A stretch of 64,000 nucleotides of DNA. Origin: a virus (lineage: Duplodnaviria; Heunggongvirae; Uroviricota; Caudoviricetes). The DNA is taken from the IMG/VR virus record IMGVR_UViG_3300031418_000001; one strand, given 5' to 3'. The notes below the pieces were generated by a model. The model saw only the letters and a list, made by a program, of their open reading frames with translations, ran no database searches and was not told the DNA's origin. Each line of letters begins with the position of its first letter. The first letter of the stretch is position 1. A program made the translations under genes and the position numbers. This document shows, piece by piece, positions 29,509-59,803 of the stretch.

Positions 29509-29994
29509 ATGAAATTAGAAGATCAAATTAAAGTACTGGATGAAGTACTACAATCCATGAAACCAGCAAAAGATAGTTTTAATCCTATTATATCACTTGC
29601 ACCATATCAAAAAAGAAATATTGGTGGTGTGGTTATAGTTGAATTTGATTCAAGAAAATATCAAAATTTTAATTGGGATGTTTGGCGTATCAATGACAAT
29701 ACCCATTATTTTTGTATTGCTATTAATGACAGATTTTATGACTTATCTGTTATGATTACAGAAAAATATAGTGAAGATTATAGTTTATATATTAGATATA
29801 ATTTAATTGACATGAGATTTTATGTTGGTGAAAGATATCGTGATGATGACAATAAAATTTCATTTGATGAAAAACCTAATAAAGAAGATCTTTTTAATTT
29901 ATCTCTTGGATATGACAAAGTACACGAAGCATTTGAAATACTCAATATTGCAATTAAAAATAAAGACATGTTTATGCGGGATTTAAAAGGATAA
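29509..29994 (+). CDS. Hypothetical protein, F(N/Q)-motif paralog family
   Basis: C-terminal NKEDLFNLSLGYD. Confidence 0.7.
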   Translation: MKLEDQIKVLDEVLQSMKPAKDSFNPIISLAPYQKRNIGGVVIVEFDSRKYQNFNWDVWRINDNTHYFCIAINDRFYDLSVMITEKYSEDYSLYIRYNLIDMRFYVGERYRDDDNKISFDEKPNKEDLFNLSLGYDKVHEAFEILNIAIKNKDMFMRDLKG

Positions 29995-30197
29995 TTTATG
30001 TTTATTTTAGTACTTAAAATATTATTAGCATACCTGTGTATTGGTATTGTATTTCTGTTAATACGGAACCTTATACAGATGATTATGTACGGTATAGGTA
30101 TGGGATTGATGTACATTTGCAAGTACTCTTATATCGGTCTTAAACGTGGATTTTTATATATTCGGGAGAAATTCTTTAAATTATAAGATGAGGTATT

Positions 30198-30695
30198 ATG
30201 TTTGTTTTTGAAGATGAAGAACCAGAAGAATTATATGATCCTGAACTGGATGGTATCAGTCATATAAACACTTACTCAAAAGGTAAAACTGAACTTGGAC
30301 GAATGTTATCGAATTTCTACTATGCACCATTTGAGCATCCAGAATACGGTAAATTCGACTCAGTAGAAGGTTTCTGGTACTGGTATCAGACAGGCCAGCA
30401 ACATGAAGTACTGCGTACCCTGCACGGTTATAAAGCTAAGCAGGAAGGTAAGAAGTATGAAAGGGTCGATATTGACGTTGAGTACTTCTATGAAAAAGTC
30501 CTTGAATGCATAGGATTGAAGATCATAAATAGTCCAGAAATTTATGAAGCATTAAAGTTAAGTACTCTTCCATTTGTACATTATTACCGGTATGGTGACG
30601 AGAATCCTAAAGTCATTAAAGTACCGTGCGAATGGATGATGAACGGAATTAACAATATTAGATTTATTATTAAACAACATGGAGCTATACAATGA
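30198..30695 (+). CDS. NADAR-like protein
   Basis: GRMLSNFYYAPF....FDSVEGFW, G..AK..GK; resembles T4 gp30.3/YbiA pattern. Confidence 0.55.
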   Translation: MFVFEDEEPEELYDPELDGISHINTYSKGKTELGRMLSNFYYAPFEHPEYGKFDSVEGFWYWYQTGQQHEVLRTLHGYKAKQEGKKYERVDIDVEYFYEKVLECIGLKIINSPEIYEALKLSTLPFVHYYRYGDENPKVIKVPCEWMMNGINNIRFIIKQHGAIQ

Positions 30696-31831
30696 AAAGT
30701 ACTAAAACATACCAAGAAGCAATTGAATTCCTAAACAAACTACCACTTGGTACTTCAGAACTTGATGTAATTATTAACTACTCTAAAGATAATGTAGATA
30801 TTCATTTTAAACAGGATGAAGGTAGTGCAATTCCGCATTTCATTCACTCTAAAGCTATCCAGTACATTGAAGATATTGACAAAGCTATTCGCAAAGAGCA
30901 TGAAGTTCCGCTAAAAGCAGTTGACACTCGTAAATCTCTCAGTACTCAATCTTATTCGTTGAAGACTGCTCTTGAACTACTTAAACATTCTTATGATATT
31001 AAATTCAATGAACTTGAGATTCACGTTCATCCTAAATCAGTAACAGTCATTTCCAGACAAAATAACGAAGAACTACCATTTATTCCTGAAAATGGAGTTA
31101 AATTACTTCTTGATTCTGGTATTCAAAGAATTGAAGATGCATTAAAAGTACTCCAGGAAAAAGAGAAAAAAGATCAACGTCTTTTTGAAGAAACGTTAAA
31201 AGAAAGTCCACTACCTAAAGTAAAAGACTTTTTTGAGAATTTAATGTCTAAACTGGATAATATTGATATGTCTCCAATTGAAAGCATTCGTGAGAAAGCA
31301 GAACAACTAATCAAAGATCAATGTTACGATAAATGGGATGATACACCATTTGGTCGTTCTGTTGTTGAAATGAAAAAGTTACTTGAATCACTTGATTCCA
31401 TCACTGAAGATTCATACTTCGAGAAAATTAAAAGTAAATTGCAGTCTTATAATCGCCAAGTAATCGCCCTGAATGATTCTCGTAAAGAACTTGATAAGCT
31501 ATTCTCTGAACTACCAAATAAGGATAAGTTCAGTGTTAACTATGATCAAGCTGGATTTGTTGATATTGTACAAGTACCATTAGTATCTTTCATTAAGCGT
31601 ACTGGTATTCGTTATGCTAATGCAGAAGGTACTAAAATTGAAGGTTTTGTTTATGAAATTCAAGCTGATGGTAGTTATATTGAATTACTTCAGTATGACG
31701 TAAATTCTATTAATTACTTCAATGATGACATTATTGTTGCTGAAGAAAAAGTACCATTCGAACGCTTCACGATCACCAAGTCAGGAAACCGTACATTTGC
31801 AGTCGAAGTCATTGACACGCCAGTGTTTTAA
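30692..31831 (+). CDS. Hypothetical protein
   Basis: 379-aa ORF, ATGA overlap. Confidence 0.7.
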   Translation: MKSTKTYQEAIEFLNKLPLGTSELDVIINYSKDNVDIHFKQDEGSAIPHFIHSKAIQYIEDIDKAIRKEHEVPLKAVDTRKSLSTQSYSLKTALELLKHSYDIKFNELEIHVHPKSVTVISRQNNEELPFIPENGVKLLLDSGIQRIEDALKVLQEKEKKDQRLFEETLKESPLPKVKDFFENLMSKLDNIDMSPIESIREKAEQLIKDQCYDKWDDTPFGRSVVEMKKLLESLDSITEDSYFEKIKSKLQSYNRQVIALNDSRKELDKLFSELPNKDKFSVNYDQAGFVDIVQVPLVSFIKRTGIRYANAEGTKIEGFVYEIQADGSYIELLQYDVNSINYFNDDIIVAEEKVPFERFTITKSGNRTFAVEVIDTPVF

Positions 31832-31870
31832 ATGGTAAAATTCCCCATCAATTCAAAGGTGGGGATAAAA

Positions 31871-32320
31871 ATGTATCGTTATCAGTTAGAGCAAGAATTA
31901 CCAAAATTTCAGCATTTGCTGTTTGCTAATAAAGAAACAGCACTTGCATCCGGTATTGAAGGAACTGTTTATATTGGTCATCCGGCAGTACATCATGTTT
32001 GTTCCATCAATCTAAAACAGAATAAAGAATCAGGTGAAAGTACTCGCTCAGTACAATTCATCTACATTCGTACCTTTTGGGATGAACCCAAGAAACAGTA
32101 CACGTACATGATTGAAACCGCAGAAGATGGATGTTCATCAAGTTTCCAAGGTGTACGCAGTAACGTATACGATGCATTCAAGTTCGCGGAAACGTTGAAA
32201 TCAGATACAGTACATGTGACAAAGTACGATACTGTTAGTGGTGAAGAACTTTGTCACTACGGTTTTCGCTGGAATCAGAAACCGGACTTTGAACGTTGCA
32301 AAAAAGATCTCAATGAATGA
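31871..32320 (+). CDS. Hypothetical protein
   Basis: ATG after GGGG RBS. Confidence 0.65.
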   Translation: MYRYQLEQELPKFQHLLFANKETALASGIEGTVYIGHPAVHHVCSINLKQNKESGESTRSVQFIYIRTFWDEPKKQYTYMIETAEDGCSSSFQGVRSNVYDAFKFAETLKSDTVHVTKYDTVSGEELCHYGFRWNQKPDFERCKKDLNE

Positions 32321-32649
32321 AAAAGAAAAATGTAAAGAAGATACTTGAAGTACTTAATGATTTGAAATCGGGTACAATATCAAAGCCGAATCATGGTATC
32401 TGTATTAATCTCATGTTTACATTGGATTGTACTGATTGTATCTCTGAATTTACTAATCAAGCATTCACGCAAATTTACGGAAATGAAGACTCATATCCAA
32501 TTGAAGGTAATTCATTGGGTTATATTCAGAATAAGGATAAGTGGAATCCTGATACTGAGTATGGTAAAAAGCGTTTAGAATTGCTTGATAAACTCATTGA
32601 GTTCGCGGAAGGTAAATTATGCAAAACAAACTATTTGTATTCACTATAA
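32317..32649 (+). CDS. Hypothetical protein, paralog of 33328-33657
   Basis: Shares GIC.NL, YP.EG, KWNPDT.(Y/F)GKKRLEL. Confidence 0.7.
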   Translation: MKKKNVKKILEVLNDLKSGTISKPNHGICINLMFTLDCTDCISEFTNQAFTQIYGNEDSYPIEGNSLGYIQNKDKWNPDTEYGKKRLELLDKLIEFAEGKLCKTNYLYSL

Positions 32650-32905
32650 AACGTACTTATGCAGATAAGGTACGTGAAAGTAAGTATCAAATACCTGCAA
32701 AAAATCGTGATGAAGCACTGATCAAATTAGGTCAGAATTTCAACAACGCAAAAGATGAATATGAACTGGAATTGTTAGAGGGTTAATCCAACATTTTCAG
32801 TACTTAATTAGAGGCTTCGGCCTCTTTTTTTTGGTCTAAATTTTGGTTGCATTAGGCTGGTGGTTCAGATATAATTTTATAAAATTTACTAATTAAGAAA
32901 TCGAA

Positions 32906-33331
32906 ATGACCCGCATTAATCTTGTACCAGTTCAGGAACTTGCAGATCAACACCTCATGGCTGAGTACCGTGAATTACCTCGCATTTTTGGTGCAGTACG
33001 TAAACATGTACAGGGTGAGAAGAAAGTAAAAGATTTCAACATATCTAATACATACCTATTGGGTACTGGACACGTGACCTTTTTCTACGACAAACTAAAA
33101 TTCCTTGCTGATCGTCATTACGATTTAGTACTTGAATGCTTAAGACGTGGTATCAATATCTCTAACACCGGAATAAATGACATTTCAGATATTCCTGATG
33201 AATGGTGCAGTACTTATATACCAACAGATAAAGATATTGAACTATCACGTTCTCGTATTTTAGAGAAGATTCAGGCTAAGCCTGAGTTCTATCGCTGGAC
33301 TTCAACTAATAAACCACTATGGGTACAATGA
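32906..33331 (+). CDS. denV: Pyrimidine-dimer DNA glycosylase (T4 endonuclease V)
   Basis: MTRINL...[32 protein letters not shown]; TTGCAT-N17-TATAAT promoter at 32847. Confidence 0.95.
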
Positions 33332-33657
33332 TGAAAGAAGAACGCATTCTGGAAGCTCTCAAGCTGCTTAAACGTGGTGTAGTACCACGGCGGGAGTACG
33401 GTATCTGTATGAACCTGGATATTCTTCTGCATGATATTGATGGCTCTGATTACATCATGACGTACTTTGATGAATGGTTCGGTAACAAAGCTGCCTATCC
33501 AGTAGAAGGTAAGCAACGTACCGACAAATCCGACCTGAACAAAGTAGGTTATGAGAATAACCCCGAAAAGTGGAATCCAGACACTAAATTCGGTAAGAAA
33601 CGTCTTGAACTGGTACAGCGTCTTATTGATACTATTGAGGAAAAAATAAATGCCTGA
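33328..33657 (+). CDS. Hypothetical protein, paralog of 32317-32649
   Basis: [26 protein letters not shown]. Confidence 0.7.
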
Positions 33658-34059
33658 ATATAAAGTACGTGTAAATTTTCAGGGATATGTTCGAGGTCAC
33701 TCTATTGTAACCGTACAAGCAGATTCTGAAGAAGAAGCACTCAATAAAGTACATTACATTGATGAAAGTACTATAAATCTTGCACGTAATGATACTGAGA
33801 TTACTGATAAAGAGATTGAATAATGAGAAGAGATGAAGAACGTGACAGCCGCAGTGATTTACTTGAATGCAAAGAACGTATCAAGCGAATCCTGCGTGAA
33901 TATAACTGTGAAATCAGCAGTACTTATGATTACAGTACCTTATATATCCGAGACAGAGACAATGATGAACGGGTAGGTTTAGACGAAAACGACGACTTTT
34001 AAGTACTTATAATTATAGTACATTTTTCTGAAACAATCTGAAAGATGTGCTATACTTAT

Positions 34060-34585
34060 AGTGTACAACTCTGATTGGCTTCACTGCAAGTGAAGATAAA
34101 ATAGAACCTGATCCTATCGAAAACGTAGATGGCAGATGAGCAGACCAACAGTGCGATGAGCAAATTAGACCCGTGGTGATTTTTACAGAACACGGCAATG
34201 TGGCTCAATAAAGAACCGGATAATACCCCGTAGGTTCCTCGATAGACATATAAGGCTTTGAACCTTACCAAATGGTATAAGGGAATCTAAGGTACTTTAC
34301 TTAGTCAAGCACTCACTCTGTTTACAATATAGTTGTATCCAGAATTTGAGTGGTACTTTAGATGCTTATCAATATAGTTCATGTTGTGTTGATAAGTAGT
34401 GTAGTGATGAACTACGACCGTTGCATATGAACAGAGATAGGAAGAAACAGGGCAACCCGCTTCCGTGCTTAGTGTAATTCTCTACATGAAATGTATGACG
34501 CACCAACGTCAGGTACAATATTCGTCCCTCCAGTGGGGGATGGAAATGTATTCAGAAACCACGTCAAGTATGATTGGTTAAACTA
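34060..34585 (+). ncRNA. Large structured non-coding RNA (~520 nt), family unassigned
   Basis: Promoter motif at 34029-34056; no + strand ORF; many hairpins (GCAA, GAAA loops) and long-range helix 34285-34295/34353-34363. Confidence 0.75.
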
Positions 34586-34688
34586 CTTAATAATAATTAT
34601 AATAGATCTGAATTGATATGAGTACTGAATGAACGTAGTGAATTCAATACGAATGAAATTCTTGACTTACGTAGTAAGGCAACTAAAA

Positions 34689-35051
34689 ATGAGTTATAAT
34701 AAATTAGAAACCCAAGAATTAATAAAAAAATATATTTCCTTAAAATATAATATTGATATTCCTTCTTTTAATGCAGTTCTTACTATAGGTGAGAGTAAGA
34801 ATGTTTACTTTCTTGAATTAATATATCATGGTATCTGGTATTCAATAAGTAACAAACATCCGTTAATGATTCAAGAAAGTAAACAAAAGGGTTCAAGACT
34901 TCTTTATGTAGATGATATTGGGTTAACTAAAGAAGAATATTTTAATTATTCCATAATGTATAATTTCCTTGAAATTATACGTCTTGAAAATGTGAAAGAA
35001 CTAACTGAATTCATTTATAATGAACTTCTACCTTTAGTACTGGATAAGTAA
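34689..35051 (+). CDS. Hypothetical protein, F(N/Q)-motif family
   Basis: GLTKEEYFNYSIMYN. Confidence 0.7.
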   Translation: MSYNKLETQELIKKYISLKYNIDIPSFNAVLTIGESKNVYFLELIYHGIWYSISNKHPLMIQESKQKGSRLLYVDDIGLTKEEYFNYSIMYNFLEIIRLENVKELTEFIYNELLPLVLDK

Positions 35052-35052
35052 T

Positions 35053-35394
35053 ATGAAAAAAGATTATGGAAAATTCAAAAAGTATCTAAAAGACGAATTT
35101 AATTATGTACCTGATGGTATCTATTTCGACTTATTTGATATAGAACCAAGCTCATATTATTTTGAATTTGCATCCAGTACTAATATTCTAATTATCGAAG
35201 AAGATAAGGTTGAATTAACTGAATATGATAATCCACTAAATGTCATACATTTCAGCAGTAATGGTACAAGTACCGATGAGTACTTTAATCTTTATTTGAT
35301 TGATGAATTGGCAATTTTATCTAAAGTTGAAAATGTACAAAAATTAAGAAACCACATGAAAGAACAATTGTTGGCGGATTTGATAAAATGGTAG
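35053..35394 (+). CDS. Hypothetical protein, F(N/Q)-motif family
   Basis: GTSTDEYFNLYLIDE. Confidence 0.7.
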   Translation: MKKDYGKFKKYLKDEFNYVPDGIYFDLFDIEPSSYYFEFASSTNILIIEEDKVELTEYDNPLNVIHFSSNGTSTDEYFNLYLIDELAILSKVENVQKLRNHMKEQLLADLIKW

Positions 35395-35825
35395 ATTTAG
35401 TAGATGAACGTTCAGAAGAATTAAAGAGACACTGGCTTGATGTTGAAAAGTACATTGAAAACGAACTTGGTTTTAAAATTAAAAATTTTATATGCGGTGT
35501 TAATGATGGTGGTTCTATGGTTCAATTTGAAATCAAAGAACAGAGATTTTTAATTGATCAAAAGAAAATCATAGAAAGTACCTTTGACTCAGGATACGCA
35601 CATCATCTTGTAACTCGCAGGATGGAAAGTGGTTTTAGTAATGATGAATTCTTTAATATGTCATTACAAGATGAAGTAAGTGAAGTACTGAAAGAAGAAA
35701 ATATCTCTAAAATACGAAAGTATATTAAAGATGCTTTGCAAAATTATGTATCGTACCTGATTGAACTTGAAGGTCATATAAAGTTTAAAAATAAAGATGG
35801 AGAAGAAACAAATGAAAAGTCTTAA
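35388..35825 (+). CDS. Hypothetical protein, F(N/Q)-motif family
   Basis: GFSNDEFFNMSLQDE. Confidence 0.7.
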   Translation: MVDLVDERSEELKRHWLDVEKYIENELGFKIKNFICGVNDGGSMVQFEIKEQRFLIDQKKIIESTFDSGYAHHLVTRRMESGFSNDEFFNMSLQDEVSEVLKEENISKIRKYIKDALQNYVSYLIELEGHIKFKNKDGEETNEKS

Positions 35826-36078: not shown

Positions 36079-36124
36079 TTGATTAAAGGGGAGCTTAGGC
36101 TCCCTTTTTTATTTGAGGTACTTT

Positions 36125-36505
36125 ATGCCAACATTTAAATCCCTTTATGAAGTAAAATTAGAAGACTTAACCTTAGATAAGTTCATTGAAGATGGATTAT
36201 CTTATTATAAAGAATATAGCGATTTCAGGTTATACATACATAATAATGTTATGGAATTCTATCATCTTTCATCAACAAGAAAAAACTTTATAATTACTAC
36301 ATTCACCAATGGGTTAATAAAAGATAGTTCAGTGAATAGTTTTTGGCATATGCCATTAGATCCTATTCAAAATAAAGATGACCTTTTTAATATATCAGTA
36401 CAAAAAGATACTTATGATTTAGATTTAGATATTATCAGATACATTGAAAGTATTATTAAAGAAGTTCGTAAGAACTTTTATGATGAATTAAACAACCTGA
36501 GATAA
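36125..36505 (+). CDS. Hypothetical protein, F(N/Q)-motif family
   Basis: IQNKDDLFNISVQKD. Confidence 0.7.
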   Translation: MPTFKSLYEVKLEDLTLDKFIEDGLSYYKEYSDFRLYIHNNVMEFYHLSSTRKNFIITTFTNGLIKDSSVNSFWHMPLDPIQNKDDLFNISVQKDTYDLDLDIIRYIESIIKEVRKNFYDELNNLR

Positions 36506-36508: not shown

Positions 36509-36910
36509 ATGAATGGATCACCTGAAATAATCAGACGTTTTCTTGATAGTACTATCATAGAATTAAATGTGGACTTAATTAGCAGGGAAAAATTCTCAAG
36601 AAATTCTTACCATCTTAATTACCGTAGTGGGAAAAATTCAATAATGGCATTTGTTAACTCATTTGTAATAGCAAATGATGTTTTCATTAAAGAATGCAAA
36701 ATAGATCCAATACATGAAATATTTGAAATACATTTTAATAGAACACGTGAAATGAAGGTTGAACTCCTACATATCCATGACAAAACTGATTTCTTTAATT
36801 ATATTGTACAGAATGAAGCCCCTGGTATGACCTATGATGATGTGCTAAAAATAAAGCTAATTATTGAAAAGATGAATGCAGAAGTTTACCGTAAGTGGAA
36901 TAGATTATGA
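36509..36910 (+). CDS. Hypothetical protein, F(N/Q)-motif family
   Basis: IHDKTDFFNYIVQNE. Confidence 0.7.
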   Translation: MNGSPEIIRRFLDSTIIELNVDLISREKFSRNSYHLNYRSGKNSIMAFVNSFVIANDVFIKECKIDPIHEIFEIHFNRTREMKVELLHIHDKTDFFNYIVQNEAPGMTYDDVLKIKLIIEKMNAEVYRKWNRL

Positions 36911-37263
36911 TGAATCTACAACGTTTAAAAACAGAACTGGATGTTTCTCATATAAAAAAAGTAGGATTCCGGCCATTATCTAATTTCTATCTTTATGAAA
37001 ATCCAAAAATTCTTATAGAAATTAAAGATGGGAAAGTTATTTTTTATCTTGGTGATGGTCATTTAATATCTGAGGGTAATTTACTTGTTATCAGTTCAAT
37101 GAGTTCAGCTATAAGTACTTTAATTGATATTAAGGGAATTGATAAAGACCAATTGTTTAATGAATCACTTATTCAAGAGCTTTATGGTTTAGATATGGAT
37201 TGTATTAATATTATCAATGAAGTACTGAATATTGTTAAAGAGGTAAAGTTAAAAAATGATTGA
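36907..37263 (+). CDS. Hypothetical protein, F(N/Q)-motif family
   Basis: GIDKDQLFNESLIQE. Confidence 0.7.
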   Translation: MMNLQRLKTELDVSHIKKVGFRPLSNFYLYENPKILIEIKDGKVIFYLGDGHLISEGNLLVISSMSSAISTLIDIKGIDKDQLFNESLIQELYGLDMDCINIINEVLNIVKEVKLKND

Positions 37264-37633
37264 CTATAACCAGATTATGCAAGACCTGCCAGTACAGAAC
37301 TTTATTAAAAGTAACTTTAAACGTGATCCTGATTATATGGGATACAGCTATAAAATACAAAATGTAAGATGTATTGTTTCTGAATCATTTATATCCTTTC
37401 CTACTATTGAAGGGAAATTTTATCTTACAATAGGTAATTATCCAGAAGCTGCATTTCATGCTGAAAAACTTGAAGATGATTGGGGTTTTGAATTAAATGA
37501 TATTCATTCTAATGCTGACCTTTTCAATATCCACGTAGAAAAGAACATGTTCGGCATGGACTATAAATTTTGTGAGTACTTAAAGGCATTGCGAGTGCAA
37601 GTCATTAAAGAATTTTTTCCCTGGAAAATGTGA
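37256..37633 (+). CDS. Hypothetical protein, F(N/Q)-motif family
   Basis: IHSNADLFNIHVEKN. Confidence 0.7.
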   Translation: MIDYNQIMQDLPVQNFIKSNFKRDPDYMGYSYKIQNVRCIVSESFISFPTIEGKFYLTIGNYPEAAFHAEKLEDDWGFELNDIHSNADLFNIHVEKNMFGMDYKFCEYLKALRVQVIKEFFPWKM

Positions 37634-38220: not shown

Positions 38221-38441
38221 CTAAAAGATACAGACCGGATATTCATACTGAGTACTCTTGGTACGGTGAATTTGCAGACCACTTTCCTTGTATGAAACAA
38301 GACAAAGACGGTGCGTATGTAACTTTCGAATCTCATAATGTTACAGCTAAGCAGTTACATAACGTAATCGAAAAGAATAAGAAGCTAAAAGCCGAAATTG
38401 AATCTTTGAAAAACGAATTAAATAAGTTGAAAAATTCGTGA
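38217..38441 (+). CDS. Hypothetical protein
   Basis: 74 aa, ATGA overlap. Confidence 0.6.
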   Translation: MTKRYRPDIHTEYSWYGEFADHFPCMKQDKDGAYVTFESHNVTAKQLHNVIEKNKKLKAEIESLKNELNKLKNS

Positions 38442-38562
38442 AACAAAAAAGATTTATGTCCTATACTTATAGTGTTGATTATATTTTTATTGTAGTTTTG
38501 TTTTTCATTTTTATTTTCCTCTGATGTTTTATTTTAAGGGTTATGCAAAGTAACCCTTATTT

Positions 38563-38657: not shown

Positions 38658-39083
38658 ATGACAAGAAAAGTTAGTTCTTCAATAAAGTTAACGTATAAAG
38701 TACTTTTAAATAATAAAAAGAACTTCATAACGAAGGATCTAAAGCATTGGAATGATTATAGCTTCGGTAATTACATTACTTTGGCTACTTATAAAGATTA
38801 TGAGATTGAAAAGAGAAATTCAGATCATTATAAAATACGCTTAAGTCCGTACTTTGGACTTTCATTCAAAAATGATACGAATGAATGTCAGATACAGACA
38901 AGAAAATTTGGAGAACCAAAGTCACATTACACCTACATTGATTTGAATATCACTACACGTGATGAATTCTTTAATCATATGATGTGCAATGATATTGGTA
39001 CTCTAACGTTTGAAGATTTAGAAGTACTAAAACAAATTAAAAATTTAACTCTTAAAATTATAAAAGGAAATCTTAATGGCTAA
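38658..39083 (+). CDS. Hypothetical protein, F(N/Q)-motif family
   Basis: ITTRDEFFNHMMCND..LTFEDL. Confidence 0.7.
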   Translation: MTRKVSSSIKLTYKVLLNNKKNFITKDLKHWNDYSFGNYITLATYKDYEIEKRNSDHYKIRLSPYFGLSFKNDTNECQIQTRKFGEPKSHYTYIDLNITTRDEFFNHMMCNDIGTLTFEDLEVLKQIKNLTLKIIKGNLNG

Positions 39084-39705
39084 AATGACACTTACCCAAG
39101 CATTAGTTGAACTGAAAAAACTTGATTCACAGATCAAACGTAGTACTTCGCAGCAGTTCATCGGGTACGTTACCGGTTCAGGTATTTGGGAAAAAACAAG
39201 TGATCGTCGTCATGCTGATAAAGCACAGGCAGAGAAAGCATATCAAGCTGCACTTGACCAAGTACAGTCACTGATTACTCGCCGTACAACTATCAAGAGT
39301 GCTGTTGTTCAGGCTAACGCTACCACTAAAGTAAAAGTTGGTGATGTAGAAATGACTATTGCGGAAGCAATTGAGCGTAAGAACAGCATCAGTATTCAGC
39401 AATCCCTTTTGGGTACACTGATTAAGCAACATGCAGAGGTTGTTAACACAGTAACCCGTCTGGATCACCAGACCAATACTGAAATCAGTCAGCTTCGTGA
39501 AACACTGTCAAGTACTGGTAAGCTGGATGATACCAAACTGAAGCAGGGTTCAGAAGACATTATGACCAAGCAAAAGGCATCACTTGTTGATCCTAACAAG
39601 CTGTCTGACCTGATTGACAAACTGACTGCTGAAATTGAAGATTTCCTGTCAAACGTTGATGTTGCACTGTCTGTAGCTAACGCTACAACCGAAATCGACG
39701 TGTAG
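39076..39705 (+). CDS. Coiled-coil protein (resembles DIP1984/DUF6847-type family) linked to downstream ncRNA
   Basis: MTLTQALVELK.L...I, IKSAVVQANA.T, MTIAEAI.RK, LVDP, IE.F...VD.ALS..NA.T.I; family name from recall, unverified. Confidence 0.7.
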   Translation: MAKMTLTQALVELKKLDSQIKRSTSQQFIGYVTGSGIWEKTSDRRHADKAQAEKAYQAALDQVQSLITRRTTIKSAVVQANATTKVKVGDVEMTIAEAIERKNSISIQQSLLGTLIKQHAEVVNTVTRLDHQTNTEISQLRETLSSTGKLDDTKLKQGSEDIMTKQKASLVDPNKLSDLIDKLTAEIEDFLSNVDVALSVANATTEIDV

Positions 39706-40075: not shown

Positions 40076-40130
40076 TACAAAAAATACAAAGCACCTAAAT
40101 GGTGCTTTTTCTATTTCAAAGGTACACTAA

Positions 40131-40415
40131 ATGCAAACTCAAGATTACAAAAATCGGCCTACTATCAAACTACTTACTATGATCTATAAAGTACGTTCTG
40201 AGATTGAAGTACACCGTAAAGCGATTCGTGCGAGCATTAAAGATAAGAAACCCGTTGTTCATCGTCTATCACATATGGTTGTATTAAGTATGTGTCAGGT
40301 GCATCTTGGGCTGATGGAACAACTTTCCGTAAATCTGGCAGCAGTCGATCCAGAACGCGATGAAAAAATTGAAGAACTGTGTCATTTATTTTGGGATCTA
40401 TATGGAACTAAATAA
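40131..40415 (+). CDS. Hypothetical protein
   Basis: 94-aa ORF. Confidence 0.65.
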   Translation: MQTQDYKNRPTIKLLTMIYKVRSEIEVHRKAIRASIKDKKPVVHRLSHMVVLSMCQVHLGLMEQLSVNLAAVDPERDEKIEELCHLFWDLYGTK

Positions 40416-40914
40416 CTATCTTGATTTTGTAGTAGAACTTAATGAGCACTTAAAGAAGAATAATGGTGATATTCAAACATTTGGTTCTCATGAGTTTAAT
40501 GATAATGAAATTGAATTTCATCGTGAGAAAAACCCTGACGGTACATCTTTTAATTTCGTCAGTACTGGTGAGAATAAAACATACTTCGGAGCAGTTGAAG
40601 TTGAATACTTTAATAGTACTCCAGTTATTTTCCTTCGCTTACCTACTTATTGTGTATTCTATGACGGTAATTATGGTTACGTTAATAAAATGCGTGAAAT
40701 GGCGAAATCACCGATTTATGAATTTAGCACAGTAAAGACACATGTAAAATACTGCAATGATTTAGATGATAGTACTTCATTTCAATACAAACTTGTTGAA
40801 GATAACATCGACAATATTCTTACATTGGTGAAACTTCTTCGTGAAATGGTTGAAACCGACAAGTACGATTCGATTGTGAAAGCACCGTTGAGAGTACAAA
40901 ATAATGTTCAATAA
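40402..40914 (+). CDS. Hypothetical protein (weak F(N/Q)-motif)
   Basis: LDDSTSFQYKLVED near C-terminus. Confidence 0.65.
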   Translation: MELNNYLDFVVELNEHLKKNNGDIQTFGSHEFNDNEIEFHREKNPDGTSFNFVSTGENKTYFGAVEVEYFNSTPVIFLRLPTYCVFYDGNYGYVNKMREMAKSPIYEFSTVKTHVKYCNDLDDSTSFQYKLVEDNIDNILTLVKLLREMVETDKYDSIVKAPLRVQNNVQ

Positions 40915-42884: not shown

Positions 42885-43151
42885 ATGACATATCTATTAG
42901 CATGGCTTGTAATCGGCTTCATTTCTTCTGTACTAACAAGTACTTATAATACTGAAGAAGTATATGAAATGCGAATGCGTAAATACCTTTCACGTAAAGG
43001 ATTGAAACGTGAAGAACTTCCAAAGGAAGTAACATACGAAACCTATAAAATGTTTTCTTTTGTATTAGGAACAATGTATGGGATCTTTAGTATTATTGGT
43101 TTTTACAGTGTTCGTAGTGATTATATGAGAACTCAGAAAAATAAAAAATGA
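42885..43151 (+). CDS. Hypothetical membrane protein
   Basis: GGAG RBS, two hydrophobic segments. Confidence 0.6.
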   Translation: MTYLLAWLVIGFISSVLTSTYNTEEVYEMRMRKYLSRKGLKREELPKEVTYETYKMFSFVLGTMYGIFSIIGFYSVRSDYMRTQKNKK

Positions 43152-43486
43152 ATCCAATATTTGAAGTACTCAATAATGGTAAAGGTACGGACTGTATAAA
43201 ATATGAAAGATTATATCCAGATACTTTACAGTACCCAATTGTAATTATATATTATAGTTTATACCGTTTAAGGATAACACCTGAACTATTAACTCTATAT
43301 TATGCTAACATTGATGATGGCTTTTATCATACTATATTAGATACTGTTGATGGTTATGATTCTGATGAGTACTTTAATTTATCTATGGAATATGAATTAA
43401 ATGATATTTGTCTGAAAAATAATATTGACAAAATTCGAAAAATATCGGATAATCTCTCATGTGCCTTACATGTGATTAATTTATAA
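43148..43486 (+). CDS. Hypothetical protein, F(N/Q)-motif family
   Basis: GYDSDEYFNLSMEYE. Confidence 0.7.
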   Translation: MNPIFEVLNNGKGTDCIKYERLYPDTLQYPIVIIYYSLYRLRITPELLTLYYANIDDGFYHTILDTVDGYDSDEYFNLSMEYELNDICLKNNIDKIRKISDNLSCALHVINL

Positions 43487-44885: not shown

Positions 44886-44893
44886 TTAAATTT

Positions 44894-45204
44894 GGCCCCT
44901 TAGCTCAGTTGGTTAGAGCAGGCAACTCATCAAATGGTGACTTTTATCAGTAATGATAATTGAAAAACTGGATGAATTCAGGGAAACCTCAGCACGTAAT
45001 GGTGGTGGCAACCGTGAGCCAAGCCTGATAAGCGTATCAGGAAGGTGCAGAGACTAAATGGTGCAACACGTTCTTGTTGCGTAATACATTGTTAGCGTCC
45101 GGCACCCTAACTATTATAGAAGGGTGGTGATATAGTCCGTACCAGTATGAAAATATTGGATAAATCGAATTGCTTGGTCACAGGTTCGAGTCCTGTAGGG
45201 GCCA
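44894..45204 (+). tRNA. tRNA-Ile2(CAT), split by a group I intron (exons 44894-44930 and 45168-45204)
   Basis: Joined exons give GGCCCCT/AGGGGCC acceptor and ggcaa-ctCAT|aa-ttgct arm; closely resembles enterobacterial tRNA-Ile2. Confidence 0.9.
44931..45167 (+). mobile_element. Self-splicing group I intron (IC3-like, 237 nt)
   Basis: P1 CAU|C:GGUG with U.G at the splice site, GCAGAGACTA and GATATAGTCC core elements, terminal G. Confidence 0.9.
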
Positions 45205-45232: not shown

Positions 45233-45637
45233 ATGGAAGAATGGAGAGAATTATTTGTAAGTGATATTGGTTTAACTATATTAGTGTCCAATTTAGGAAC
45301 TATAAAAACCAAAGATAAAGTTATAACATGCAGAAATCAATTTAATACTTATCAAAAGTTAATACCTGGAATAACTAAAAGTCCGGCACTTAATGGATCA
45401 GCAGGTTATTATCAAGTACATCTTCATAATAATGGTAAGAAGAAGAGTAAGTATGTTCATCGGTTGGTATGGATAGCTTTTAATGGAGAGATACCAGATG
45501 GTTTTGAAATAGATCATGATGATTGTGATAAAAGTAATAATTGTCTCGATAATTTAAAACTTTTAACTCGAAAACAAAATATGGAAAAGATGTTTAAGTT
45601 GAATCCTCATATTAAATATAATTTGCATGGGAAATAA
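45233..45637 (+). CDS. NUMOD4/HNH homing endonuclease
   Basis: EEWR...VSNLG, GYYQV.L, YVHRLV..AF..IP..FEIDH.D.DK.NN...NL. Confidence 0.9.
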   Translation: MEEWRELFVSDIGLTILVSNLGTIKTKDKVITCRNQFNTYQKLIPGITKSPALNGSAGYYQVHLHNNGKKKSKYVHRLVWIAFNGEIPDGFEIDHDDCDKSNNCLDNLKLLTRKQNMEKMFKLNPHIKYNLHGK

Positions 45638-52364: not shown

Positions 52365-52820
52365 ATGACAAAGAACTATGAGCAATTATTCTTTGACTTC
52401 GTAAGCAAGCTACACGACAATCTTCAGTACAGTATCGTCACCCATTATGAAAATGGGTGGGTTGGATATAAATTTGTTAATGGTATCGACATTGATACTG
52501 AACATTTTTATTACGATGGGTACTATGGTATTGATTTTAAGTTTGATGGATTCCGTATGTTCCTTATGGACGACTGTTTCTATTTTGTGGATCTTGAAGA
52601 AGAAGATAAAGATGTAAACACTATACCTGCTATTGATACCTGTTATGATGGCGGTACTGATATTGTGGATAAACACAGCTATTTCCAGTACTCAATCACT
52701 CATGATCTTAAAGGCATTCGCTGGCAGACTTTCCCTATGATTAAGAAGATAAGAGATACCTTCTTTGAAGGTGTTGGTACTCGTATCTATCTTGAAGATG
52801 GATTCCAGTTCATTGTATGA
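52365..52820 (+). CDS. Hypothetical protein, F(N/Q)-motif family
   Basis: IVDKHSYFQYSITHD. Confidence 0.7.
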   Translation: MTKNYEQLFFDFVSKLHDNLQYSIVTHYENGWVGYKFVNGIDIDTEHFYYDGYYGIDFKFDGFRMFLMDDCFYFVDLEEEDKDVNTIPAIDTCYDGGTDIVDKHSYFQYSITHDLKGIRWQTFPMIKKIRDTFFEGVGTRIYLEDGFQFIV

Positions 52821-53194
52821 ATCTAAGTGCAGAAGAATTAACTAATATCGAGAATAATATAATTAATTGTATAAAATGCATATATCTTGTTATGGGAACA
52901 TCTAACAATATGCACTACATCGACGGCCTAAACTATATTGGTCGTCTTGATGATAATTCCGTTGATGTATGGGTACAAACAAATTCATATCAGGATGACG
53001 TATTTTCTTTGTATTTTGATTCTTTTGGATACTATCATACACAGTACTGCATAGATATTACTGATTCTGGTTTTGATTTAGAAAATGATTTCTTCCAGAT
53101 CAGTACTGTATATCCATTTAAATTGAGTACTTACCAAGAGATAAGAAAACTCAGAATGGATATGATTGAAAAAGAAATTCTGTACAAAAGTTAA
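52817..53194 (+). CDS. Hypothetical protein, F(N/Q)-motif family
   Basis: LENDFFQISTVYP. Confidence 0.7.
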   Translation: MNLSAEELTNIENNIINCIKCIYLVMGTSNNMHYIDGLNYIGRLDDNSVDVWVQTNSYQDDVFSLYFDSFGYYHTQYCIDITDSGFDLENDFFQISTVYPFKLSTYQEIRKLRMDMIEKEILYKS

Positions 53195-53620: not shown

Positions 53621-54064
53621 ATGAAAATAGAATTACACGAACCATTTTGTAGCAAATGGAAATTCGGGTACTTGAGAGAAAGTCCTGATAAAAGGAAAAG
53701 AATTGATTTATTCAATTCCAATGAAGATAGAACCACTATATCTTATTCAAGATACTTAATGTCAGTTCATGTTGGTAGGTTTCTTAATGATGATGAAGAA
53801 GTAGATCATATTGATGAAGATTGTACAAATGATGATATTAATAACCTTCAGATTTTATCTACCGAAGAACATCGTAAGAAGAATTCAAAAAGTAATAGTA
53901 CTGGAAGAACAGTTACTGAACTTAAATGTGAATACTGTGGTAAAGATTTTATACGTGAAAATAGAAGTATAAGAAAAACAAACTATATTTCATGTTCACG
54001 AAGATGTAGTGCACTTATTAACAATGCAACTAAGAATTTAAAATTTTCTAAACAAGCACCTTAA
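53621..54064 (+). CDS. HNH endonuclease
   Basis: RYLM....GRFL...EEVDHIDE...ND.INNLQIL...H; C-terminal CxxCGK..CSxxC. Confidence 0.85.
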   Translation: MKIELHEPFCSKWKFGYLRESPDKRKRIDLFNSNEDRTTISYSRYLMSVHVGRFLNDDEEVDHIDEDCTNDDINNLQILSTEEHRKKNSKSNSTGRTVTELKCEYCGKDFIRENRSIRKTNYISCSRRCSALINNATKNLKFSKQAP

Positions 54065-55764: not shown

Positions 55765-56142
55765 TTGACTTATTTTAGTCCATTAATGAAGAATGTTAAA
55801 AATATATCAGAAATACTGGATACATTTGAGTTTGATCCTCCTGCATTTTTCAAAAGTACCGAAGTTGAAGAATATATCAGGATTCATTTTAACCAAAAAG
55901 ATGAACCCGTATTCAACATCCGTTCTCAATACAGTACTGGTTATATATACATTCATGAAAAGTTTATTAAAATGAATGATTATGATGAACAGGGTAATTT
56001 ATCACCGATTAAATTTAGTACTGAAGCTGAAACAGAAATAGATATGTTCCAGCTACAATTAATGCAGAACTATCGTGATATAACTTTTGAAGATATTCAG
56101 AATTGCAATAAGATATATGAGTACTTCAGTAGCAAAGTATAA
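55765..56142 (+). CDS. Hypothetical protein, F(N/Q)-motif family
   Basis: ETEIDMFQLQLMQNYRDITFEDI. Confidence 0.7.
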   Translation: MTYFSPLMKNVKNISEILDTFEFDPPAFFKSTEVEEYIRIHFNQKDEPVFNIRSQYSTGYIYIHEKFIKMNDYDEQGNLSPIKFSTEAETEIDMFQLQLMQNYRDITFEDIQNCNKIYEYFSSKV

Positions 56143-56150
56143 GGAATATA

Positions 56151-56504
56151 ATGAAAGGAGTCATCGGATTATTATATTGTACTGAACTTAATGAGTTCAT
56201 TGATACAAGTACAAATGATAAAACATTCAGTACTGATGAAATTACAGTTAAAATATATAAGAACAAGAATGGTGATCAATGTATTGATTATACTATCATG
56301 ATCATATACACCATTACTGTCAATTTAAATAAAAATAGTACCAAAATTAAGGGTTCTTATAATAACTGTTATATGGAATTGCCATATGATTGTGAAGATA
56401 GAAATGAATTCTTCCAGTTAAATTGTTATTATGATTTCCATGATTTTAAGTTTGAAGATTTAATTAAAATACAGGAATGGACAAAGTACTTCCTGACTTT
56501 ATAA
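56151..56504 (+). CDS. Hypothetical protein, F(N/Q)-motif family
   Basis: CEDRNEFFQLNCYYDFHDFKFEDL. Confidence 0.7.
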   Translation: MKGVIGLLYCTELNEFIDTSTNDKTFSTDEITVKIYKNKNGDQCIDYTIMIIYTITVNLNKNSTKIKGSYNNCYMELPYDCEDRNEFFQLNCYYDFHDFKFEDLIKIQEWTKYFLTL

Positions 56505-56511
56505 GTACAAT

Positions 56512-56730
56512 GGGGCATGTTCCAAGAGGGTCGATTGGGCGAATAAACTATGAACGTCGCTGGCGTAAAAGCCGTCTGTTAACTGAATCACTGAATGTCT
56601 CAGAAGCACCTATAGCGGCCTGACAACAGGCGGGGAGAAACAAGCAAGGGAAGCGTAGTCTAAGGTGAGGAAGGCGTATAGCGAGAGTTATACGTAGCAG
56701 AAAGTACGGGTTCGAATCCCGTATGCTCCA
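56512..56730 (+). ncRNA. ssrA: Compact tmRNA (219 nt)
   Basis: GGGGCAT/ATGCTCC-A acceptor with G3.U70, T-arm acggg-ttcgaat-cccgt, TAACT then tag frame ESLNVSEAPIAA* (56585-56623). Confidence 0.7.
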
Positions 56731-56744
56731 CAAAAGGAATAACA

Positions 56745-56990
56745 ATGAAATACGAAACTGATATTAAAGTTACACGCATTAATAAAAGATACCATGCAAG
56801 GTTATTTGTTAATGGTAATCTTTATGATGAAATGGCATGTGAATACCGTACTGATATAGGGTTTATTTGTCGTCAGATGTTACGTAATGCTGATAAAATG
56901 GGTATATTTAATGCACATACTGAATCAGCACGTAAACGTATTACTACTTCTAACACTCATGGTAAAATCTGGTACAGGAATAAGTTATGA
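56745..56990 (+). CDS. Hypothetical protein
   Basis: 81 aa, AAGGA RBS. Confidence 0.65.
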   Translation: MKYETDIKVTRINKRYHARLFVNGNLYDEMACEYRTDIGFICRQMLRNADKMGIFNAHTESARKRITTSNTHGKIWYRNKL

Positions 56991-57337
56991 AAGAGATATT
57001 TGAAGATCTTCAAAACTTAAGGTACAGTGAACTGATTGATAAAAAATTCAGAATTGATGAAATAACATGTTCTGTTCGTTATACTCAACGTGGTATTGTT
57101 TTATTATTTGGTAATAAAGGTTATACAATAATATGTAATATTGATAATCATATCAGAATTATCTATGCTAATAATGATAAAACTAATGATTGGAGTATTC
57201 CATACAAATGTGAAGATAAAAATGAATTCTTCCAGTTAAGTACCAAATATGATTACCATAATATGAGTTATGAAGATTTATATAACTTCCAAATCTTGTG
57301 CGGTGATATGATTAAAAGGAATTTAAATGAAGGATAA
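56987..57337 (+). CDS. Hypothetical protein, F(N/Q)-motif family
   Basis: CEDKNEFFQLSTKYDYHNMSYEDL. Confidence 0.7.
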   Translation: MKEIFEDLQNLRYSELIDKKFRIDEITCSVRYTQRGIVLLFGNKGYTIICNIDNHIRIIYANNDKTNDWSIPYKCEDKNEFFQLSTKYDYHNMSYEDLYNFQILCGDMIKRNLNEG

Positions 57338-57987
57338 AAAATATAAAATTGTATATGGTGGTGCTCAGGATCATCAAATGCGTATGGTATATACAGTCTA
57401 CCAGAAAAGTAAATTTTTATTCTGGAAGTACTGGAAGATATGTAAAACCTATACCAATAGACTTACTTATGCTGAATTCGAAACAAAAGAAGAAGCAGAA
57501 AATTTTATAAAAATGAATCTTAATTAAGTACATGATTTTTTTAAAATTTTCGTGAAACAAAAACAATTTATATCCTATACTATAAGGGTAAGGTAAAGAA
57601 AATGAGCCTGATACATAAATTCGATTATTATACTGGTGAACCTATTACTGGTCAGCATATTAAAACTATTCTTTCATTTGGGCTTGAAATTCTTAGCATT
57701 GAAGCTGATAATTCTGGTGCAATTTATGTTTTAATTGCCGGTACATTCGACCAGCATCAGTGTATTAACAAAGACAGTGAGTTAGCAAAACTTTTTCGAT
57801 TAGCTTGAAAAAAAGCTGAAACAAATCAAAAAGATGTGCTATACTAAAAGAGTAAGACACGGAATCACGCAGCAAATTAAAAAACAAATCTTATCTGAAA
57901 AAAGAATCTTGCAGTTCAAGTCTGCACTACGCAAAGTCTTACATTAGCGTAGCCACGGTGGAGATATGTTTTGATTCCAGTTAATAC

Positions 57988-58060
57988 GTTCCCATCGTCT
58001 AACGGCTTAGGACGGCTCCCTTTCACGGAGCAAATCGGAGTTCGATTCTCCGTGGGAACG
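57988..58060 (+). tRNA. tRNA-Glu(TTC)
   Basis: GTTCCCA/TGGGAAC, gctcc-ctTTCac-ggagc. Confidence 0.92.
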
Positions 58061-58157
58061 CAACATAGTTCCTCCTTTTCTATGTGTGTTGTGGTTGTTA
58101 TGGATTCTGACAGCAATTTAAACTCTTATGCTAAAGAAAAAAACGGAATCCAGTTTT

Positions 58158-58233
58158 GCACAGATGGCTGAAAGGTTGAGGCAACGGATTGCAAATCCGT
58201 ACTATGCAGGTTCGAATCCTGTTCTGTGCTCCA
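58158..58233 (+). tRNA. tRNA-Cys(GCA)
   Basis: GCACAGA/TCTGTGC, U73-CCA, acgga-ttGCAaa-tccgt. Confidence 0.92.
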
Positions 58234-58411
58234 ACATTGTTAAGTACTTTCATAGTAGAGTACTTAATAATGAATTTAGGAATCTAACAGCAACTTTAAA
58301 ATCTTATGCTTAAAGAAAAAAGAATAGATTCCTGTTAAAAAAGAATTATGGATACTTACAGCAACCTAAAAACTTTTATTGGAAAAAGAAAAACGGTATC
58401 CAGTTAAATTT

Positions 58412-58495
58412 GTGGGGCTGGCAGAGCGGTCGATTGCGGGGGACTGTAAATCCCTTCCGAAAGGCACGGTGGTTCGAATCCATCGCCCCACACCA
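58412..58495 (+). tRNA. tRNA-Tyr(GTA)
   Basis: GTGGGGC/GCCCCAC, gggga-ctGTAaa-tccct, variable arm, ACCA. Confidence 0.93.
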
Positions 58496-58519
58496 AATTA
58501 GTAAGAGATATAATGGATT

Positions 58520-59041
58520 ATGTCAAAAGTTAGTAAAATTAATAGTATATCAACAACTGAATTTAAAACAATTGTTGAATCTTGTTTCTCTATAAGAGAA
58601 ATTGTCGAGAAAATGGGATTTTCAAGACAGAGTGGAAGTATGGCAATTAAAGTTAAAGAGAGAATTGCCAAAGAACAAATAGACACTTCACATTTTTTAG
58701 GTAGATTGTCTGTAAAAGGAAAACATATCCGTATTGAAATGGAAGATATATTAGTAAAGGACTCAACTTATACTAATATATACATGCTTAAAAAAAGACT
58801 CGTAAATGATAAACTTCTTAAGTATGAGTGTCAACTGTGTAAAAATGATGGTACATGGAATGGTCAAAAATTAACTTTACAACTCGATCATATAAATGGA
58901 GATCATAAAGATCATAGATTGGTCAATCTAAGGTTTTTATGCCCAAACTGTCATTCACAAACTGAAACTTTCTCAGGTAGAAATGTTAAAAAATACCCTG
59001 AAGTTATCACACTGGTAGGTAGGCCACCCATTATCCAGTGA
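58520..59041 (+). CDS. HNH endonuclease
   Basis: YECQLC....WNG..LTLQLDHING...DHRL.NLRFLCPNCHSQT. Confidence 0.9.
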   Translation: MSKVSKINSISTTEFKTIVESCFSIREIVEKMGFSRQSGSMAIKVKERIAKEQIDTSHFLGRLSVKGKHIRIEMEDILVKDSTYTNIYMLKKRLVNDKLLKYECQLCKNDGTWNGQKLTLQLDHINGDHKDHRLVNLRFLCPNCHSQTETFSGRNVKKYPEVITLVGRPPIIQ

Positions 59042-59159
59042 TGCGGAACGATTAATTAGTATAACGATAACTATAGAGGTATAGTGCACACCGGTTCAGG
59101 TACTATATTGATATAGAGACAATAGTACTATGAAGGTGGTTCGAATCCACACTTCGGGG
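58996..59159 (+). ncRNA. tRNA-like RNA with enlarged body (~164 nt)
   Basis: 9-bp closing stem ccctgaagt/acttcgggg next to T-arm gtgg-ttcgaat-ccac. Confidence 0.6.
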
Positions 59160-59259
59160 CGAAAGGTTTTTTGCTTTTCAATATATATCTTATCCTTAAT
59201 CAATAGTATTCACATCCGGGTATGAAAATATCGAGTACTATTTCTTAAGATAATATTAT

Positions 59260-59342
59260 GGGGATGTGGTGGAATGGCAGACACGGCAGTTTTAGGCACT
59301 GTTTCCTTTGGAGTGAGAGTTCGAGTCTCTCCATCCCCACCA
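59260..59342 (+). tRNA. tRNA-Leu(TAG)
   Basis: GGGGATG/CATCCCC, gcagt-ttTAGgc-actgt, ACCA. Confidence 0.92.
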
Positions 59343-59350
59343 ATTAATAC

Positions 59351-59421
59351 AGGGGCTTAGCCAAGCGGTTAGGCGGCTGTCTCCAAAACAGTTGAGGCGT
59401 GTTCGACTCATGCAGCCCCTG
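59351..59421 (+). tRNA. tRNA-Trp(CCA)
   Basis: AGGGGCT/AGCCCCT, gctgt-ctCCAaa-acagt. Confidence 0.9.
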
Positions 59422-59440
59422 CAAATATAAGTACAATATT

Positions 59441-59803
59441 ATGAATGAACTTGAAACTATTATATTTGAAGTACATGATCATATAATCAACAATAAGCAT
59501 CTTGATGAAGATATTTTATTTAGATTATATAAAAATAATATAATAATTAAGTACTTTACCTTTACTCTTTGTCTTAAAAAACAACATTTTATATTTCAAC
59601 TTGACCCTACTGGTCTGGTTCGTTATTTCGAACATTATGTAATCGAGAAAGATTTACATTTTGAATTGAACATAATGGGGTTAGGTCTTTGTAACTTAGA
59701 ATGTGTACAGAAGATGATCGAATTACGAGAATGGCATGGGTTAACTACTAATATTGAGGCTAATTTTTTGATTGATTACCATGAAATTTCATCAACTAAT
59801 TAA
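59441..59803 (+). CDS. Hypothetical protein (weak F(N/Q)-family similarity)
   Basis: IEKDLHFELNIMGL. Confidence 0.6.
   Translation: MNELETIIFEVHDHIINNKHLDEDILFRLYKNNIIIKYFTFTLCLKKQHFIFQLDPTGLVRYFEHYVIEKDLHFELNIMGLGLCNLECVQKMIELREWHGLTTNIEANFLIDYHEISSTN

Follow-up and report, generated by a model that had tools for sequence, protein, structure and literature searches.

In jumbo phages of the RaK2 type, paralogous proteins have so far been mentioned in general terms: about 10% of the RaK2 proteins are described as paralogues in the passage of the RaK2 paper that deals with them (PMC3622015), and 22 open reading frames (ORFs) are given as paralogues in the corresponding passage for phage CBB (PMC5259590). 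A comparable expansion is known from Bacillus phage G, a jumbo phage with a zinc-ribbon family of roughly 35 copies, in which a small domain likewise occurs in many diverged copies with no assigned function (Iyer et al. 2021, PMC7824862), and the passage on that family proposes a role in regulation or host conflict. None of the passages concerned in these three papers names or delimits the family that is described here, and no published description of it was found in the literature; in public records, its members are only hypothetical proteins and PHROGs of unknown function (phrog_24941, 24321, 17453, 24510, 13866). The family is found on a 64,000-nucleotide stretch of DNA of a tailed phage (IMG/VR record IMGVR_UViG_3300031418_000001; this whole stretch is termed the window below), where fifteen ORFs on the + strand between positions 29509 and 57337 are whole-length, very old paralogues of one small single-domain family of roughly 110-160 amino acids (aa). 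In contrast to the zinc ribbons of phage G, these proteins have another fold and no metal-binding motif.

A preliminary description of the window, made from its sequence, had listed 17 ORFs, counted as about 16 paralogues, with a common C-terminal motif, and most of this list has stood. All 15 strong motif instances were found in the respective ORFs, and each of these ORFs was recovered in a leave-one-out analysis, in which a profile hidden Markov model (HMM) was built from 14 members and the 242 ORFs of the window were then searched with it for the remaining one. In all 15 trials, the omitted member ranked first of the 228 ORFs outside the training set, with E-values from 2e-8 to 0.03, and the member count in the window stayed at 15 through four profile iterations. 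Both candidates that had been listed as weaker failed: the ORF at 40360-40914 (+; the candidate at 40402) is ruled out by HMM E-values of 2 and 0.05 and an hhalign probability of 0.2%, and the ORF at 59399-59803 (+; the candidate at 59441), whose mechanically assigned GTG start lies inside the tRNA-Trp gene, by an HMM E-value of 6.5 and again an hhalign probability of 0.2%. Also excluded, as a probable repeat artefact, was P0022, a 405-aa repeat protein that matches profile positions 9-70 (E 4e-6). The significance of the motif over chance in AT-rich phage proteomes was borne out as well: 20-fold shuffled decoys never scored above 9-10 bits and gave no matches, the iterated profile had zero matches in shuffled proteomes and zero in minus-strand ORFs, and no family member was detectable in the AT-rich phages T4, KVP40 and Bacillus phage G, nor in PA5oct, for which a transcriptome is published, and XacN1. 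It can thus hardly be doubted that the 15 ORFs form a real, single-domain family with the range and turnover described below.

It had also been suggested that the members share only a C-terminal module and have dissimilar N-termini. This holds for pairwise comparisons and fails for the family as a whole. When each protein was cut four residues before the aromatic pair of the motif, the C-parts alone, i.e. the last 35-45 residues, ranked first in every leave-one-out trial and contained nearly all of the pairwise signal, whereas the N-parts alone ranked between 2 and 150. The ranks of the N-parts are nevertheless jointly non-random (Fisher combined p about 3e-6, with trials that are not fully independent), four pairs of members align over 75-117 residues, some pairs align end to end, and database relatives match profile positions 8-128 of 131. 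In an alignment of 119 sequences drawn from seven phage lineages, conserved columns are found in the N-terminal part as well, namely an aromatic Phe or Tyr (83 of 88), an Ile/Leu/Val position, and a Tyr (105 of 115), and 14 of the 15 window members align a Tyr at the latter column. The N-parts are therefore related, and the low overall similarity (paralogues in the window are at most 37% identical) is that of old, full-length homologues. In orthologue pairs with a close relative, the syntenic metagenomic contig L010, identities range from 0.49 to 0.70 in the N-parts and from 0.46 to 0.79 in the C-parts, and this similar divergence does not fit a constant module that is joined to a hypervariable one.

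The predicted structure agrees with a single domain. An AlphaFold2 model of the 113-residue member at 35053-35394, calculated with an alignment of 40 sequences of paralogues and metagenomic relatives, shows one compact alpha-beta5-alpha-alpha domain with a predicted local distance difference test score (pLDDT) of 87.9 and a predicted template modelling score (pTM) of 0.80. A helix at residues 6-16 is followed by five strands within residues 22-68, the motif helix at 74-81 comes directly after the last strand of the sheet, and a long helix spans residues 87-111. The helix that had been expected behind the motif is thus present in the model, and the expected distance of the motif from the C-terminus, 30-55 residues, was measured at 31-58. 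In order, the motif columns are a hydrophobic residue, T/S/D/N (108/119), any residue, E/D, E/D (91/119), F/Y/L (107/119), the invariant Phe (119/119, 116/116 in a second set, and all 15 window members), N/Q (111/119), any residue, Ser, L/T, two further residues, and D/E/N, so that the family carries the signature [STDN]-x-[ED]-[ED]-[FYL]-F-[NQ]-x-S-[LT]-x-x-[DEN] together with the N-terminal aromatic residue and Tyr. Helix capping follows the rules that an N-cap residue is accompanied by a capping-box acid at N3 and by a hydrophobic staple between N' and N4. Because the column pattern fits these rules and the modelled helix starts at residue 74, right after Ser73 in the T/S/D/N column, the motif can be read as an N-cap (S/T/D/N), a capping box (Glu/Asp three residues on), a hydrophobic staple and a core Phe, and it is fairly likely that it is mainly a structural keystone of the domain. 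In the modelled gene, the segment at 35269-35307 (+; residues 73-85) would accordingly comprise the N-cap Ser, the capping-box Glu, the staple Tyr, the invariant Phe, the Asn and the conserved acidic position.

The family has no Pfam entry, no solved relative and no confident fold match. Foldseek searches with the 113-aa model against PDB and BFVD gave nothing at E <= 1e-3, a sequence profile search of the PDB gave 0 matches at E <= 10, and Pfam searches with 40 members at E <= 1 resulted in one-off matches only, with no recurrent family. A PDB-wide structural aligner (VIA) ranked the colicin N receptor domain (Z 5.7), SPLUNC1 (5.1), Mam33 (4.8) and the polo box (about 4.7) best, and all these values are lower than the Z of 7-8 that unrelated models typically reach; a shape search in the ESM Atlas reached TM <= 0.52. 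Among the 40 aligned members, PHROG matches were obtained for phrog_24941 (10/40, best E 3e-18), phrog_24321 (8/40) and phrog_17453 (7/40). Longer fused relatives were not found, which is weak evidence.

As to the phage itself, the window is AT-rich (33-39% GC), nearly all genes are on the + strand, and there are 15 tRNA genes and one group I intron. In the first 28 kb, a Dda-like helicase, both topoisomerase II subunits, the clamp loader, virion proteins and Ter-type proteins are encoded. The gene order is that of the Xanthomonas jumbo phage XaC1, with clamp loader, virion proteins, TerD, a tellurite-resistance protein, a conserved ORF-free stretch, small genes and tRNA-Ser. Since this order matches while the protein identity to XaC1, the closest isolate, is only 29-39% in the family region, the phage can be assigned to a new, uncultured lineage related to the RaK2/121Q/CBB/XaC1 group of roughly 350-kb myophages. 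With the profile derived from the window, at E <= 0.01, 37 copies were detected in XaC1, 29 in Erwinia phage Hallingskeid, 13 in RaK2, 12 each in Klebsiella phage Muenster and E. coli phage JNE01, and 4 in CBB. Four local iterations on complete sequences raised the numbers to 63 in XaC1 and 38 in JNE01, with zero decoy matches. A distant metagenomic contig (L001, 349,780 bp) has nine or ten copies within 7 kb, and two protein searches at billion scale returned 14 and 29 relatives, all of them unnamed and mostly metagenomic. The family is specific to the RaK2/121Q/CBB/XaC1/Hallingskeid group of jumbo myophages, with 4 to about 63 copies per genome.

The small proteins with a TEE-x-FFQ-x-S motif in RaK2- and 121Q-type phages belong here as well. 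The profile matches both sets, and they have in common their size, the occurrence in arrays, the N-terminal Tyr and, in the motif, the invariant Phe with the acidic run ahead of it and the Asn/Gln. The window copies differ in that most of them have FN in place of FQ, and in that they are interleaved with tRNA genes and do not form one long array; that many of them flank tRNA or non-coding RNA genes, as had been noted at the outset, is correct by the gene and tRNA map of the window. RaK2 members include ORF184, 186, 187, 189, 191, 196 and others, and the record annotates ORF184-196 only as "hypothetical protein". The RaK2 virion proteins map to two gene clusters (PMC3622015). In XaC1, the family genes are found at the equivalent genomic place, after the conserved ORF-free stretch and before tRNA-Ser.

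The evolution of the family was assessed by a comparison of the window with the contig L010 (112 kb), using eight family orthologue pairs and seventeen neighbouring genes (Mann-Whitney tests). Mean identity is 64% in the family pairs in comparison to 83% in the neighbours (p 1e-3), the median rate of nonsynonymous substitution (dN) is 0.22 versus 0.11 (p 3e-4), and the median ratio of nonsynonymous to synonymous rates (omega) is 0.26 versus 0.10 (p 3e-3); in the seven pairs with an estimable synonymous rate (dS), omega is 0.22-0.38. The family genes are thus real genes that are under purifying selection, with relaxed or partly diversifying constraint, and change at about twice the rate of their neighbours. 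They are also gained and lost between close relatives and undergo lineage-specific expansions. The member at 29509-29994 has no orthologue in L010, and in Hallingskeid the best match lies within the own genome for 29 of 30 members, which points to a lineage-specific burst. Six window members have a higher-scoring match in XaC1 than among all their paralogues in the window, and part of the repertoire therefore predates the split from XaC1. The preliminary suggestion of a diversified repertoire of one protein type is supported.

All 15 copies have intact frames. The largest and most divergent member (29509-29994, 161 aa, motif NKEDLFNLS) ranked first in its leave-one-out trial with an E-value of 0.018. 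In the region that follows, the ORF at 34629-35051 (140 aa) probably starts at ATG 34689 behind AAGG, resulting in 120 aa, and its orthologues (P0024 and the gene in L010) have 121 aa. Directly behind it are the modelled member (35053-35394, motif STDEYFNLY) and a 145-aa member with a C-terminal extension (35388-35825), the syntenic XaC1 homologue of which is 39% identical. A terminator-like hairpin at 36085-36108 (+) divides the eight-member cluster of this region into two runs. Behind the hairpin, the member at 36113-36505 probably starts at ATG 36125 (126 aa), with a relative (P0018) that begins with MPTFK, and is followed by members at 36509-36910 (133 aa), at 36907-37263 (118 aa), where the start overlaps the preceding stop by four bases, and at 37256-37633 (125 aa), which has a promoter and tRNA-Ser downstream. 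The member at 38658-39083 (141 aa) comes directly after tRNA-Thr and is basic, with an isoelectric point (pI) of 9.2, and a 112-aa member is encoded at 43148-43486. Further downstream, the member at 52365-52820 (151 aa) has the FQ variant of the motif, and the adjacent one at 52817-53194 (125 aa) had the weakest leave-one-out result (E 0.031, yet rank 1); against the profile of 119 sequences, of which it is itself one, its E-value is 6e-9. The last three are the 125-aa member at 55765-56142, which has a TTG start and an alternative ATG seven codons in (55786), and those at 56151-56504 (117 aa) and 56987-57337 (116 aa), the latter being the closest paralogue of the former with 37% identity over 93 aa. 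Several of the family genes overlap by 4-8 bases, which suggests that they are translationally coupled in operons.

The promoters of the region are of a class that recurs throughout the window. The motif TGAAAC-N-TGTGCTATACT, written out as the consensus TGAAAC(A/G)-N-(T)GTGCTATACT, was found with the pattern TGAAA-N17-19-TATAMT at 16 sites in comparison to 1.5 expected, almost always on the + strand; examples within 960-63926 (+) are at 960, 8332, 15035, 16430, 34029, 37643, 38439, 44164, 53220, 57553, 57817 and 63898. Promoters of this TGAAAC...TGTGCTATACT class precede the helicase, topoisomerase and clamp-loader genes, tRNA groups, tRNA-Ser and ORF-free stretches. The one at 34029-34056 (+) heads the conserved ORF-free stretch and then the first family cluster, and the one at 38439-38467 (+) is located before tRNA-Thr and the basic member. 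The consensus resembles a TGAAACG/TATA promoter class of CBB and GAP32, which is found mostly before DNA-synthesis genes, and the CBB authors suspect early expression for a long series of short hypothetical genes in that phage (PMC5259590). In the window, the family genes presumably share operons with tRNAs and non-coding stretches. As the family genes are positioned behind promoters that also head the helicase, topoisomerase and clamp-loader genes, and in view of the promoter class and the suspected early region of CBB, their expression probably precedes that of the late genes. Over about 580 nucleotides, the ORF-free stretch behind the promoter (34060-34640) is itself 79% identical to XaC1. 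Shorter matches were found in the genomes of 121Q-type phages, Hallingskeid, XbC2 and CBB, and there, too, the stretch is unannotated or covered by no more than tiny ORFs. It has no Rfam match and probably represents a non-coding RNA that is conserved in this phage group.

What these proteins do can be addressed by their common properties. Each copy may be a soluble, mostly acidic, stoichiometric one-to-one binder of a different host or competitor protein, with the binding specificity on the variable surfaces of sheet and helices of one scaffold, and the repertoire would then be an accessory set for host takeover or counter-defence. The reasons for this view are that the proteins are small and mostly acidic, that their genes turn over and are located among accessory genes and tRNAs, and that RaK2 has no virion annotation for them; the fast evolution, the wide variation of copy number and the diversified repertoire fit a role at the phage-host interface. 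As to the acidity, the median pI is 4.7-5.7 in the family versus 5.6-6.8 in similarly sized ORFs outside it (p 6e-4). A number of points nevertheless weigh against this view or against the structural interpretation. With one basic and two neutral members, acidity is a tendency and not a rule, and the omega values stand for constraint and not for positive selection. No homology ties any member to a target or to a defence system, and the timing of expression is read from the promoter class only. The second model, that of the 161-aa member at 29509, repeats the order of elements with additional strands and is poor (pLDDT 58). The predicted burial of the invariant Phe is drawn from helical periodicity, i.e. 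from the face that it has in common with the conserved i+3/i+4 positions. Lastly, the motif helix keeps polar residues beyond the needs of capping, namely Asn/Gln (108/116), Ser (78/119) and Asp/Glu/Asn (110/119). Altogether, we give the whole explanation, consisting of the family, the structural motif and the binder repertoire, a probability of about 0.5, and taken by itself the function as a repertoire of binders is a tentative proposal, somewhat below even odds.

The conserved polar residues lead to the view that had been put forward in the preliminary description, in which an F-box-like adaptor repertoire docks to one common partner by a constant C-terminal element, the helix pair, and recruits varied targets by the remainder. 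Capping leaves these residues unexplained, and they are the sole motif candidates for a shared surface, which could be a binding site for a common partner such as a host or phage protease or another hub. That almost all pairwise similarity is in the C-terminal 35-45 residues would fit as well, and so would the gene of a ClpP-type protease (2406-3092 in L001) just upstream of the family run in the distant relative. In F-box/SCF systems, too, there are many copies with one short conserved helical segment and a variable rest, but F-box proteins combine a separate F-box of roughly 45 residues with WD40, LRR or Kelch domains, whereas the window family is one domain of about 115 residues. A constant docking module with separate recognition domains is thus not supported, in view of the confident model of a single compact domain, the conserved N-terminal positions, the similar divergence of N- and C-parts in orthologues and the reading of the motif as a helix cap. 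Moreover, the F-box (PF00646 and relatives) and other Pfam adaptor domains are absent from the 40 members at E up to 1, fused forms were not found (although this argues only weakly), and in the window no partner gene was identified and no ClpP-type gene was seen. What survives of the idea is a possible docking site on the conserved polar face of the motif helix, and this is unlikely. In its strongest form, which is just as unlikely, the family would be a new fold that serves RaK2/121Q/XaC1-type jumbo phages as a programmable scaffold, with the Asn/Gln, Ser and Asp/Glu docking all copies on one hub (host protease, RNA polymerase or a phage partner) while the variable sheet picks host or defence targets; if true, this would be a true phage adaptor or decoy repertoire with 15-60 members per genome.

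One-to-one binding is also at the core of the idea that the copies neutralise toxins or abortive-infection effectors individually, in the manner of SUKH and other immunity proteins, which form tandem arrays in bacteria. The genes are indeed arranged in tandem and encode small alpha+beta proteins that have diverged strongly, "Knr4/Smi1-like" is the closest cluster by language-model features in the ESM Atlas, and weak structural matches to the TriTu and CdiI immunity proteins were obtained. All these similarities are in the chance range, however (Foldseek E 0.4-1.0, TM-score 0.43), and the "Knr4/Smi1-like" lead, with a score of 0.86 and 154 shared features below the thresholds of the tool, was dropped as support for the same reason. 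As no SUKH model matched, no Imm family recurred in the 40 members (Imm59 appeared once, E 0.007), and no toxin genes are adjacent, such an immunity array is quite unlikely; as to the SUKH fold, no SUKH chain is among the matches listed in the PDB-wide structural search. Very unlikely is an acidic oligomeric platform of the p32/Mam33 type, in which homo- or hetero-oligomers would serve as acidic chaperones or nucleic-acid mimics. Its appeal is in the order of elements, N-terminal helix, antiparallel sheet and two C-terminal helices, which is that of p32 (MAM33/gC1qBP, PF02330), in the acidity of both, and in the recurrence of Mam33 (3qv0, Z 4.8, root-mean-square deviation 3.8 over 90 residues), gC1qR (7te3, Z 4.6) and trypanosome p22 (3jv1, Z 3.7) among the weak structural matches. 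These scores are all below the 7-8 that unrelated models typically reach, and colicin N and polo-box domains score just as well; five strands are present in the model where p32 has seven, and PF02330 matched none of the members at E up to 1. The likeness is a resemblance in topology and acidity only and not a membership. A homodimer prediction for the 113-aa member (two copies and the alignment) gave a score of 0.02 against a mark of 0.42, which bears on oligomers neither way. Finally, the genes could be functionless or selfish filler, duplicates that bring the phage no benefit and persist in a hyperplastic region with many homing endonucleases and tRNA genes. The three HNH endonuclease genes and the group I intron of the region, the wide variation of copy number and the copy that is missing in L010 are compatible with this, but omega values of 0.22-0.38 in seven pairs, intact frames in all copies, a Phe that is invariant in 116 of 116 members and the retention of several paralogues since before the XaC1 split render it highly improbable. 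In comparison to the binder repertoire, the immunity-array, p32-platform and filler explanations are thus less likely.

The surroundings of the family genes contain further elements of this phage group. The group I intron is located at 44919-45159 (Rfam RF00028, 76.6 bits), and a gene for a free-standing HNH_3 endonuclease comes behind it (45233-45637); the DNA just upstream, at 44890-45000, matches sequences of the tRNA region in RaK2-type phages. At 56650-56731, ARAGORN indicates a tRNA-like gene with a four-base anticodon (gaga) and no determined amino acid, which is below the gathering score of the Rfam tRNA model. Pfam-matched neighbours are a pyrimidine-dimer DNA glycosylase (denV-like, 32906-33331), two more HNH endonucleases (53621-54064 and 58520-59041), and an R2K-clade ATP-grasp protein (59998-60858). 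Two pairs of paralogues outside the family are encoded at 24946-25527 and 25612-26196 (33% identity over 141 aa) and at 32317-32649 and 33319-33657 (41% over 104 aa), and of the latter pair a single copy was found in L010. The most conserved gene of the region (39076-39705) encodes a 209-aa protein without Pfam family, with 96% identity between window and L010. Its start lies across the stop of the basic family member at 38658-39083, and downstream of it a further ORF-free stretch ends at a terminator (40088-40108).

The practical value at this stage lies in a clean definition of the family by a profile that has no matches in the controls, and in a few residues that can be tested, and not in a function. 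The window adds an uncultured lineage to the range of the family, indicates that part of the repertoire is older than the XaC1 split, and lets the motif appear as a structural part of a single domain, so that other mutants and pull-downs become worthwhile than before. In XaC1, roughly one gene in nine belongs to the family according to the iterated profile. The family thus makes up one of the largest portions of coding capacity that have no explanation in a well-known jumbo-phage group, and some phages of this group are under development against Klebsiella, E. coli, Erwinia and Xanthomonas.

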